A stretch of 31,870 bases of DNA, taken from IMG/VR virus record IMGVR_UViG_3300011336_000294, positions 1 to 31,870 of that record. One strand, written 5' to 3'. The stretch comes from a virus. Its lineage: Duplodnaviria; Caudoviricetes. Below are positions 10,747 through 12,971 of the stretch, piece by piece; the stretch's first letter is position 1; each line of letters begins with the position of its first letter. The notes beneath the pieces were generated by a model. The model was given only the letters and a program-made list of their open reading frames with translations. It was not told the DNA's origin and did not search any database. The position numbers were made by a program, and so were the translations under genes.

Positions 10747-11114
10747 AACAACCATCCGAATACTACTTAGATGTAGCTGTTTGGAAAACAGGTTGTTGGA
10801 TTGTCTGGCCCGTTAATAAAGAGTCAGCCAAGACTTGGTTCAAAGAAAAGCTAGATGGAGAACATGATTTTGAAAACCTAGACAATCATTCTGATGCTTG
10901 TGCTGTTCTAGGAAGCGTACCGATTATATTCCTTACACAATGGAAAAATAATCCAGAATGGATTTCCATTCTAGCCCATGAATGTATTCATGTTGCTACA
11001 TTTATGCTCAAAAACTGCGGTGTTGAAGAAAAGGAATCCTGCGACGAGGCACTAGCGTACCTGGTCGGCTACCTTGTAGAGAGCTTTCTAAAAGCCCTTA
11101 CAAAGAAAGTTTAA
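10743..11114 (+). CDS. HEXXH zincin-like metallopeptidase domain protein
   Basis: AHECIH followed by DEALAY. Confidence 0.65.
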   Translation: MKQPSEYYLDVAVWKTGCWIVWPVNKESAKTWFKEKLDGEHDFENLDNHSDACAVLGSVPIIFLTQWKNNPEWISILAHECIHVATFMLKNCGVEEKESCDEALAYLVGYLVESFLKALTKKV

Positions 11115-11317
11115 GCAAAGGTAAGAAGATCGCTTTGATGATGTGCAATAAGTTGAAGGATTGCCTTTCCCTCATCGGTAGCAACATGACCTGTACCTTG
11201 GCACTTCCAGCAAGGTTCCCCTTGACCTTCATCGTACCAATCAGTTCCTGTTCCACCGCACTCATCACACGCTTTCTCAAGCATGATCTGTTTGAATAGA
11301 TTATTCATACGAACCAT
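11111..11317 (-). CDS. Small DnaJ-type zinc-finger protein
   Basis: CDECGGTG and CWKCQGTG repeats; minus-strand TTGACA at 11341-11346; true start may be ATG 11308. Confidence 0.7.
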   Translation of the reverse strand: MVRMNNLFKQIMLEKACDECGGTGTDWYDEGQGEPCWKCQGTGHVATDEGKAILQLIAHHQSDLLTFA

Positions 11318-11364: not shown

Positions 11365-11586
11365 ATGAAACAAAAAGATTTACTGGATCAAGCCAAGGAT
11401 CTTGCTAATCTAGGCAAGGACTACGGAAGTATTGTCGGTCAGCTTGAGCCAAACAACAAGCTACTCCTCAAACACTACGTCCTAAACCTCCCAGAAGAAC
11501 TAGCCAGCAAAACAATCTATGGCAGGGTTGCCTGGGCAAGCAGGGAAAATATCCCTAAAGGCAGAGGCAGACCACGCAAGAATTAA
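11365..11586 (+). CDS. Hypothetical protein with C-terminal AT-hook-like motif
   Basis: 73 aa ending KGRGRPRKN. Confidence 0.65.
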   Translation: MKQKDLLDQAKDLANLGKDYGSIVGQLEPNNKLLLKHYVLNLPEELASKTIYGRVAWASRENIPKGRGRPRKN

Positions 11587-11593
11587 CCAGCAT

Positions 11594-11785
11594 ATGAAAA
11601 TAGAAGATATTAAAGAAAACTACCCTGATGCTCTACTAGCAGATGGGTTTGATGAATGTATTGTTGGGGTAACAATCGAAGGTCAGGTTGTTTATGATGT
11701 AAATAAGATGATTGAACAGATGATGAGCCAAGACGGCATGGATCAAGACATTGCCCAAGAGTATTTTTACTTTAATTATATCTAA
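11594..11785 (+). CDS. Conserved phage protein (ADGFD...VYD...EYF family), apparently C-terminally truncated
   Basis: ATG 11594 after aaccagcat; stops 1 nt before the tRNA remnant. Confidence 0.6.
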   Translation: MKIEDIKENYPDALLADGFDECIVGVTIEGQVVYDVNKMIEQMMSQDGMDQDIAQEYFYFNYI

Positions 11786-11786
11786 T

Positions 11787-11821
11787 TACCCTTTGGTGTA
11801 ACGGTAGCACCGCAGATTTTG
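11787..11821 (+). pseudogene. 5' half of a disrupted tRNA-Gln(TTG)
   Basis: TACCCTT-TG-GTGT-AACGGTA-GCAC-C-GCAGA-TT-TTG: acceptor 5' strand, D-arm, anticodon 5' strand and anticodon. Confidence 0.85.
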
Positions 11822-11890
11822 CCGAATGGTGTAATGGTAGCACCGATCCCTTTGGAGGATCTTGTCTAGGTTCAAGTCCTAGTTCGGCAG
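11820..11890 (+). tRNA. tRNA-Gln(TTG), complete, CCA not encoded
   Basis: Acceptor TGCCGAA/TTCGGCA, D-stem GTGT/GCAC, anticodon stem GATCC/GGATC with loop CTTTGGA, T-arm CTAGG-TTCAAGT-CCTAG, discriminator G. Confidence 0.95.
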
Positions 11891-12384
11891 TTTTTACCAG
11901 CGTATGTTTTAGTTTGGCTATGACAATTAGGGCATAGAAAGCACAAGTTCTTTATTCTATGGTCGTTTGATACTCCATTTTTATGCTCCAAATGAAGCAC
12001 AAGTTCTTTGTTGCACCAAGACCCATTGTTTCCGCATTCAGAACACACCCAAGGTAAAATTTTAAATTTTAATATATTTTCTTTGATTGCCTTTCTGCTT
12101 CGTTGAGAATTTACAACAAGCCAGTCATTTAAAAATTCATCAATTGAAAGATTTCTTGAGAAATGTGTTGATTCATAGCTAGACATCATGTGTGCTTTAC
12201 TTAACCCAAGATGCTCTATTCTAGCGTTCGCGGTATTAAAATTACCTCCTTTATTTGCTACTCCAAAGAAATCCAGAACATCTTTCATTCTGTTTGATTT
12301 AGCAATCAGATGAATAAATTCATTATCTGGCAAAAGCCAGATTTTGCTTGTTCTCCTTCTTTTGATAGTACGATTTACACTCAT
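11872..12384 (-). CDS. HNH endonuclease (putative homing endonuclease)
   Basis: CSEC...LHLEHKNG..NDHRIKNL.FLCPNCHSQT; stop codon lies in the antisense of the tRNA T-loop. Confidence 0.92.
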   Translation of the reverse strand: MSVNRTIKRRRTSKIWLLPDNEFIHLIAKSNRMKDVLDFFGVANKGGNFNTANARIEHLGLSKAHMMSSYESTHFSRNLSIDEFLNDWLVVNSQRSRKAIKENILKFKILPWVCSECGNNGSWCNKELVLHLEHKNGVSNDHRIKNLCFLCPNCHSQTKTYAGKNCRTRT

Positions 12385-12391
12385 GTTTCAT

Positions 12392-12419
12392 ATACTACGA
12401 TCCAACAATAAAATGTCAA
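12392..12419 (-). promoter_or_regulatory. Promoter for the HNH gene (probably leaderless)
   Basis: TTGACA (12419-12414)-N16-TAGTAT (12397-12392), 7 nt before ATG 12384. Confidence 0.6.
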
Positions 12420-12441
12420 TCAAATCCATGAGGGGTAGCCA
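12420..12441 (+). pseudogene. 3' remnant of the disrupted tRNA-Gln
   Basis: TCAAAT-CCATG-AGGGGTA-G-CCA; AGGGGTA pairs 7/7 (one G-U) with TACCCTT at 11787. Confidence 0.8.
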
Positions 12442-12465
12442 GTTTATTCCAGCATAGCAATTTAA

Positions 12466-12540
12466 TCCAAGGTAGCTCAATGGTTGAGCAAGTCCCTGTT
12501 AAGGACGAGGCTGTGGGTTCGAGTCCCACCCTTGGAGCCA
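12466..12540 (+). tRNA. tRNA-Asn(GTT) with encoded CCA
   Basis: Acceptor TCCAAGG/CCTTGGA, D-stem GCTC/GAGC, loop CTGTTAA, T-arm GTGGG-TTCGAGT-CCCAC, GCCA end; one mismatch at the top of the anticodon stem. Confidence 0.93.
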
Positions 12541-12602
12541 AAGGTATTCCAACCAACAATCAAAACGATTTATAGGGCATCCTAGCCCCACAGGGATACC
12601 TT

Positions 12603-12971
12603 CTACTTAAGGAAGGTCAGCTTATAAAGCGTCGAGTCAATCAACTCCGCTATCCCATCCACCAAGTTCTGGATCTCGCTCCCTCCACCAAGCACTCCCC
12701 TGTTCTCCTCCAGAACCATCTTGACGTACATGACAAAGACCAGAGAATCATTCTGCTCCTCTACCTCTACAGTCTGGTCAGGGTACTCCACAAGCTCTCC
12801 ATTCCTTCCCTGCCACGCCTCAATCACTCCATCAACCAAGTCTGGCATACCCTTGTAAAACCCCTCCAGAGCCTTATGCTCCGAATAGCTCCTGCTCCTC
12901 AGATGCAACACATGAGCAATAGTAGCCGAATTGAGTAAAGTGATAAGTAGTTCTCCTGCTTTCATATCCAA
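12603..12971 (-). CDS. DUF5856-like ferritin/Dps-fold phage protein
   Basis: H..HL..RSYSEHKAL..FY...D...E and C-terminal TLYKLTFL. Confidence 0.75.
   Translation of the reverse strand: MDMKAGELLITLLNSATIAHVLHLRSRSYSEHKALEGFYKGMPDLVDGVIEAWQGRNGELVEYPDQTVEVEEQNDSLVFVMYVKMVLEENRGVLGGGSEIQNLVDGIAELIDSTLYKLTFLK

Follow-up and report, generated by a model that had tools for sequence, protein, structure and literature searches.

A mobile phage cassette of an HNH endonuclease gene and a replacement tRNA-Gln lies within a broken tRNA-Gln gene and is probably a homing unit

Introduction

The WHO elements of yeast are intron-less homing units that consist of a nuclease gene and a resistant piece of the target gene. 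Their second homology arm is a 3′ piece of that gene which is left over, and the remnants and the nuclease later decay (available portion of PMC7282813). According to the same portion, these elements encode an intein-like/zinc-finger protein in eukaryotes, target FBA1 and create a chimera by replacing the 3′ end of a protein-coding gene, and their cleavage has been demonstrated.

In phages, intronless homing of the T4 seg/mob type involves cleavage hundreds to thousands of bases from the insertion site of the nuclease gene, and in collaborative homing a free-standing nuclease is paired with an ORF-less group I intron (both from the available part of PMC2988022). SegB of T4 and T6 is free-standing, resides in tRNA regions, cuts tRNA genes and spreads together with neighbouring tRNAs; it is a GIY-YIG enzyme that sits between genes and recognises the T-psi-C motif of many tRNA genes (accessible sections of PMC2330249 and PMC13096335), and those of PMC13096335 give it no isotype preference. 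Viral tRNA clusters are already known to contain HNH genes, which were suggested to spread the clusters (PMC6409571, in part). HegA (F-TflIV in a related record's note) is an HNH protein of the T5 tRNA cluster.

Here we describe a locus of the IMG/VR record IMGVR_UViG_3300011336_000294 (G000), which is linear, 61% complete and 31,870 bases long; this whole stretch is called the window below. Sequence comparisons indicate that the locus holds a mobile cassette, an HNH gene placed tail-to-tail with its own complete tRNA-Gln(TTG). By analogy, the cassette works most like the WHO elements without being a member of that group: its nuclease is a 170-aa phage HNH protein, it carries a whole new tRNA gene to which the nuclease gene is antisense and overlapping, both halves of the old gene are dead, and its cutting is predicted from sequence, whereas that of WHO has been demonstrated. 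Among WHO-type features, the carried 3′ remnant is seen directly (L007 and L201; related loci and records bear L numbers), and resistance is predicted from allele counts with exceptions. Insertion inside the presumed target would also differ from the seg/mob rule, the cut site being a predicted one. T5 HegA shares the tRNA-cluster location and is a distant relative (29.9% identity to the window protein over residues 22–165, E 7e-9), but it follows tRNA-Ser and tRNA-Ile in the sense orientation, with no split gene or adjacent tRNA-Gln in the stretch shown. Collaborative homing resembles a sister HNH branch found at intron-split tRNA-Gln genes; the window locus has no intron, and immunity would come from a substitute gene.

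Results

A tRNA-Gln gene broken at its anticodon

An earlier note, made from the letters of the window, had described a tRNA-Gln gene interrupted by a second tRNA-Gln and an HNH gene, and all of these elements were recovered in place. The 5′ half of the old tRNA-Gln(TTG), from the acceptor 5′ strand to the anticodon, occupies 11787–11821 on the plus strand, stops at TTG and is identical to the intact gene of L004 at 35/35 positions. The 3′ remnant (12420–12441, plus strand), running from the T-loop to the CCA, matches L004 at 22/22 positions and finishes in G-CCA; between the two halves, all 7/7 acceptor positions pair, one of them as G-T. The missing stretch, first put at about 17–18 nt, is exactly 17 nt by comparison with the intact L004 allele and takes in the 3′ strand of the anticodon stem and the 5′ strand of the T-stem. 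Since 17 nt of the gene are lost, no splicing can restore the old tRNA-Gln, and the HNH gene is encoded in neither an intron nor an intein; ARAGORN, applied to the halves joined in silico as the note had proposed, called 0 genes. Complete exons and a tRNA restored by splicing, both of which a group I intron requires, are absent from the window locus. The old 5′ half is a dead remnant and likely a left homology arm, and the old 3′ remnant travels with the insert and is likely the right one.

The two halves are separated by 598 nt that contain only the new tRNA-Gln and the HNH ORF, with a GC content of 35.5% vs 43.7% for the whole window. An integrase-driven tRNA-targeting island was considered and rejected on this content and on the presence of each old half once in the window.

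The new tRNA-Gln(TTG) lies inside the old gene at 11820–11890 on the plus strand (ARAGORN, 11819–11891). It is complete, 71 nt long and different from the old one, has a C31-G39 pair and no encoded CCA, and folds as a cloverleaf both alone (z −3.46) and with the old half in front. The near-identical D-arm and the new acceptor and anticodon arms that had been noticed are borne out by the alignment, in which old and new agree at 17/18 positions of the D region, 3/7 of the acceptor 5′ strand and 6/17 of the anticodon arm. The TG common to the old anticodon and the first two bases of the new tRNA is likewise present at the left junction, where the anticodon loop and the start of the new gene have a TTTG microhomology.

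ARAGORN found two tRNAs in the window, Gln(TTG) and Asn(GTT). Downstream of the insert, a stub at 12448–12458 equals the first 11 bases of the tRNA-Asn allele that L081, L086, L087 and L104 have at the same spot, and it is followed by a different, complete tRNA-Asn at 12466–12540; stub and new tRNA-Asn are possibly the scar of a second tRNA replacement. The tRNA locus is flanked by genes for a DUF5856 protein (12603–12971, minus strand; PHROG 858) and a small Anti-TRAP/DnaJ-type zinc-finger protein (11111–11317, minus strand), both kept in empty-site relatives. The small terminase subunit is encoded close by (Pfam, PHROGs), and no host marker was found among the 22 window proteins with Pfam.

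The HNH gene and its product

The antisense gene between the old halves occupies 11872–12384 on the minus strand and encodes 170 amino acids. Its identification as an HNH endonuclease stands on PHROGs, whose HNH families matched at E 1.8e-33 (PHROG 10822) to 2.4e-6; Pfam gave no HNH match at E 0.05, and neither Pfam nor PHROGs gave a GIY-YIG match. The ORF overlaps the 3′ end of the new tRNA over 19 nt, and its stop codon falls in the T-loop. E133, H134, N146, H155 and four cysteines are invariant in 16/16 aligned rows, and H134, N146, H155 and the cysteines, which we take to be the catalytic and metal-binding residues, are intact. The protein model (pLDDT 84.6) has a helical N-terminal part and a zinc-finger HNH C-terminal part. 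Because Foldseek found no match at E 0.001 or better and the VIA-align matches to HNH domains were weak (best Z 4.1, none with Z ≥ 5), the structure supports the HNH assignment weakly. A sequence search of solved structures returned nothing useful, and sequence and structure searches together found no solved or characterised close relative.

The right junction had been placed at the edge of the HNH −35 box. A TTGACA-16-TAGTAT site on the minus strand (12392–12419, sigma-70-like, 10/12 consensus matches) does begin at 12419 and abuts the remnant, which upholds the position; the pattern itself is not above chance, with 5 sites found vs 3.6 expected, and the promoter is therefore a candidate only.

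The insertion is genuine and has empty sites

The two D regions are identical at 17/18 positions, so that an assembly chimera of two similar tRNA genes had to be considered. The locus recurs in L001, which differs from the window at 1 of 5025 bases. We also compared contigs, as distinct from raw reads, of 4/20 listed sequencing runs. Two contigs of run X12, which belongs to a separate study, cover 11531–12006 and 12051–12625 with 0 differences, one across each junction, and a contig of run X13 covers 11787–12441 with 11 differences and is unlike the window beyond 12441. A second X13 contig joins 11821 to 12420 via 17 letters, which is the empty allele, and filled and empty alleles thus occur together in one run. 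With the same junctions in L001, in X12 and X13 contigs and in diverged phages, a chimera is refuted at contig level, and we give it a practically negligible probability.

The note had asked for relatives with an intact old tRNA-Gln at this site, and these exist (L004, L076, L081, L083 and others). The exact 22-base 3′ end occurs in 33 viral records; one of these is the record of L001, and the fetched stretch of the other 32 contains an intact tRNA-Gln without an HNH match. L081 is 83% identical to the window upstream of the site and 79% downstream, and L083 89% and 79%. No HNH homologue was found in any of the 5/5 empty-site records tested, all of which are fragments. With an empty allele at the same locus in related genomes, the HNH gene is optional.

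In L068 and L071, which have no HNH gene in the stretch, the tRNA-Gln is 12 nt shorter than the intact allele through a deletion in the anticodon arm. This deletion is a possible repair scar.

Lateral movement, a fixed left breakpoint and decay

L007 is 97.5% identical to the window over 11803–12441 and 72–79% in the flank, and its 5′ half is another allele, which is intact in L066, L067, L069 and L070. These comparisons indicate that the insert has moved sideways into different tRNA-Gln alleles. Four different 5′ halves (window, L007, L010 and L201) end at the same TTG, and the 3′ remnant of L009 starts at position 37; the 5′ half of L114 has one extra base, and that of L011 is two bases shorter, ending within the loop. 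Only 3/7 of the outer acceptor pairs can form in L007 and L201, so the 3′ remnant came with the donor and the outer helix is dispensable. A required outer acceptor helix is ruled out by the same pairing. Between the HNH genes of the window and L007 there are 3 synonymous and 6 non-synonymous codon changes; recent copies thus give no sign of recent purifying selection, which is compatible with a homing or a passenger reading alike.

Old halves are also lost. One or both are absent in L008, L009 and L202. L202 and L203 represent a clean replacement, with the 5′ half lost and the 3′ end almost entirely so. The new anticodon arm occurs in 13 records: 4 with HNH, 1 with a 21-aa stub, 5 with a worn 5′ half and without HNH, 2 with another nuclease and 1 with the tRNA alone. 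Such a series would be expected from an invasion with subsequent decay, and it fits homing. The earlier proposal of an intron-less homing unit that targets a tRNA gene draws support from the lateral spread into other alleles and from these decayed copies.

Two side observations concern the same locus and a neighbouring lineage. L113 (966–1472), and also L115, hold an unrelated HNH_3 and AP2 nuclease in an equivalent layout at the same locus, with a cut 5′ half, a related replacement tRNA-Gln, an antisense gene and a short 3′ remnant. By eye, L002 and L069 have the same upstream gene end as L015 and L120, the former with an ordinary tRNA-Gln and the latter with one linked to HNH, which points to another lineage that has both empty and filled forms.

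The main rival to homing is that the cassette moves by ordinary recombination over short tRNA homology and is favoured on account of a superior new tRNA, one that might for instance withstand a host anticodon nuclease, with the HNH protein as a passenger or a SegB-like cutter of a general motif. It can draw on the TTTG microhomology at the left junction, on the tRNA outliving HNH in 6/13 records plus 1 stub, on the unrelated HNH-AP2 gene in the L113/L115 layout, and on the proposal that phage tRNAs evade host tRNases (PMC10264068, as far as its available text goes). Recombination alone, by contrast, should favour crossover in the 17/18 D region, which would give a chimeric single tRNA and not a split one. 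This rival would further leave unexplained why nuclease-adjacent A31-T39 alleles are so often interrupted at the anticodon, and why the nuclease family prefers Gln, as described in the following sections. We regard it as unlikely, and homing as the better reading of the same series. The note's side suggestion that the new tRNA might escape host anticodon nucleases found no support in these comparisons.

Association of the HNH family with tRNA-Gln

Three scans, contributing 58 of 58, the best 80 of 256 and the best 80 of 116 matches, gave 218 HNH loci, which form 124 clusters at 90% identity; a tree from a quick search covers 107/124 rows. In prokaryote genomes, only 11 distant HNH loci were found. 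A tRNA is present in the fetched stretch of 117/124 clusters. Within 100 bases of the HNH gene there is a tRNA-Gln in 56/124 clusters, only another tRNA in 44 and none in 24, so that 68/124 are without an adjacent tRNA-Gln, and an identical or related tRNA-Gln adjoins the closest HNH homologues. Gln accounts for 58/150 adjacent tRNAs vs 21/414 non-adjacent ones, counts that include 12 intron-bearing genes relabelled as Gln; the associated p of 3e-21 overstates the case because the clusters are related and the rows not independent. The expectation that HNH homologues would be tRNA-linked and lie inside split tRNAs is borne out, with a strong link to tRNA-Gln and repeated occurrence in split tRNA-Gln genes.

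This preference sets the family apart from SegB, as do its HNH type, its presumed target motif and its insertion inside the presumed target, and the recombination rival leaves it unexplained, a general-motif cutter like SegB being without isotype preference. Some clusters (L030/L176, L031/L168/L169 and L035/L046/L261/L192) adjoin tRNA-Gly(TCC) or tRNA-Trp, hinting that these branches arose by target switches between isotypes.

Anticodon-arm pair 31-39 as a candidate specificity rule

An A31-T39 pair is present in 29/32 empty-site records and in 6/7 distinct arms. As background we used 120 loci from 2/64 parts of the collection, chosen regardless of arm and unmatched for lineage or habitat, in which ARAGORN gave A31-T39 in 73/111 phage tRNA-Gln(TTG) genes. 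Among intronless genes adjacent to the nuclease, the pair occurs in 0/12 in an inner clade of 14 rows and in 4/29 in the enclosing clade of 28 rows (SH-aLRT 96 in the quick tree of 107 rows), of which 29 genes probably 1 is a false row from the relaxed tRNA finder, which also missed L011. That finder produced 3 false rows (reverse-strand T-arms) among 17 'empty-type' genes, and it was not used for the empty-site count. Over all clusters, 7/40 adjacent intronless TTG genes have A31-T39. The exceptions include intact A31-T39 genes beside L215, L217 and L219 and another 745 nt from L013. In the same loci, the pair is also rare (4/20) in Gln genes lying over 100 nt away from the nuclease, which may be a lineage effect. 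From these allele statistics, exceptions included, the new tRNA-Gln is predicted to be resistant to cleavage.

Adjacent tRNA-Gln genes that are interrupted by an intron have A31-T39 in 12/12 cases. These tRNA-Gln(TTG) genes (L016, L022, L023, L025, L061, L129, L139, L141, L146, L147, L148 and L156) carry introns of 194–203 nt between U34 and U35, removal of which yields a tRNA-Gln in 12/12; Rfam RF00028 (group I intron) matched 6/6 loci tested, 4 of them above the gathering score. ARAGORN miscalls most of these genes as Stop, Ser or SeC. Because 11/12 lie in one branch of the tree, they amount to about two events.

Shorter inserts interrupt the anticodon of an A31-T39 tRNA-Gln beside the HNH homologues of L019 (2238–2355, insert of 46 nt) and L024 (2319–2437, 45 nt). 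They end like a tRNA, with a 7-bp acceptor stem, G and CCA, and a T-arm in L024. ARAGORN calls a tRNA-Gln after their removal, and they are candidate tRNA-mimic introns.

As these 45–46 nt inserts would splice out cleanly, and the outer acceptor strands of the window pair 7/7, one may ask whether the outer tRNA of the window is still made, the insert being removed from the RNA in the manner of an intron and the halves joined. The window locus lacks 17 nt and its joined halves give no ARAGORN call, the outer helix is down to 3/7 in L007 and L201, and a half or both halves are missing in L008, L009 and L202. We consider splicing extremely improbable; the 17-nt loss and the 3/7 helices bring the rejoining of the outer halves close to refutation, and we rejected it.

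The frequency of A31-T39 bears on another alternative, in which the nuclease serves mainly as a weapon, directed at tRNA-Gln genes in rival phages or in the host chromosome, and the cassette is copied only incidentally. Because A31-T39 is the common type in phage tRNA-Gln (73/111), many unrelated genomes would be targets, and the 12-nt anticodon deletion of L068 and L071 could be a scar of repair after such an attack. A selfish cycle accounts better for the loss of HNH after fixation and for the weak constraint seen between recent copies, and we judge a primary role as a weapon to be very unlikely. A selfish homing cycle remains our preferred reading.

Discussion

The locus is real and mobile, and it is probably a homing unit. 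The insert, its empty sites, its lateral movement, the fixed left breakpoint and the family's tie to tRNA-Gln are established by the comparisons above. Together, the HNH residues, the empty alleles, the non-intron placement and the lateral transfer with decay would place the gene among free-standing phage HNH homing endonucleases. We consider it likely that the cassette homes by cutting close to the anticodon of tRNA-Gln genes and brings along, as a built-in rescue, a replacement that is predicted to be resistant.

In a mixed infection, the HNH protein would recognise the anticodon arm of the resident gene of a sister phage, probably of A31-T39 alleles, and break or nick it at or just after the anticodon. 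Since the phage HNH homing enzymes MobA, MobE and I-HmuI nick one strand (available part of PMC2988022), nick and double break are equally likely. In repair on the donor, the left homology would be provided by the old 5′ half or by the TTTG in common, and the right homology by the 3′ remnant that the cassette carries, as far as the common GTAGCCA end. The recipient gene would end as dead halves, and the new tRNA, processed by host RNase P and the CCA-adding enzyme, would restore tRNA-Gln. The 19-nt overlap would hold nuclease and rescue tRNA together. With targets exhausted, the nuclease gene would decay, leaving the replacement tRNA in place.

A broader reading is tentative, and we find it possible and on balance somewhat doubtful. 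The HNH family, a widespread one, would target the tRNA-Gln anticodon arm with the 31-39 pair as a main specificity determinant, and its own genome would be spared in three interchangeable ways, by a whole substitute tRNA whose anticodon stem is altered, as in the window, or by a group I intron or a 45-nt tRNA-mimic insert in the anticodon. Homing would then drive tRNA replacement, intron gain and anticodon-stem divergence in phages.

A literature search of openly available main texts found no nuclease cassette by which a phage tRNA gene is both split and replaced, and the available portions of PMC3706429, PMC10644984 and PMC10448857 hold nothing on such a cassette. The window contributes a well-sampled instance and an allele pattern. 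It also offers a testable handle in the form of a 170-aa enzyme, named natural alleles and a prediction about one base pair, namely that A31-T39 genes would be cut and C31-G39 or intron-bearing genes spared.

In summary, we have described a cassette that, if the homing reading is true, would represent a natural cut-and-rescue drive in minimal form, about 600 bases long, and a tRNA counterpart of the yeast WHO elements. Divergence and turnover of phage tRNAs are usually ascribed to codon use or to escape from host tRNases, and selfish homing would be a third driver.
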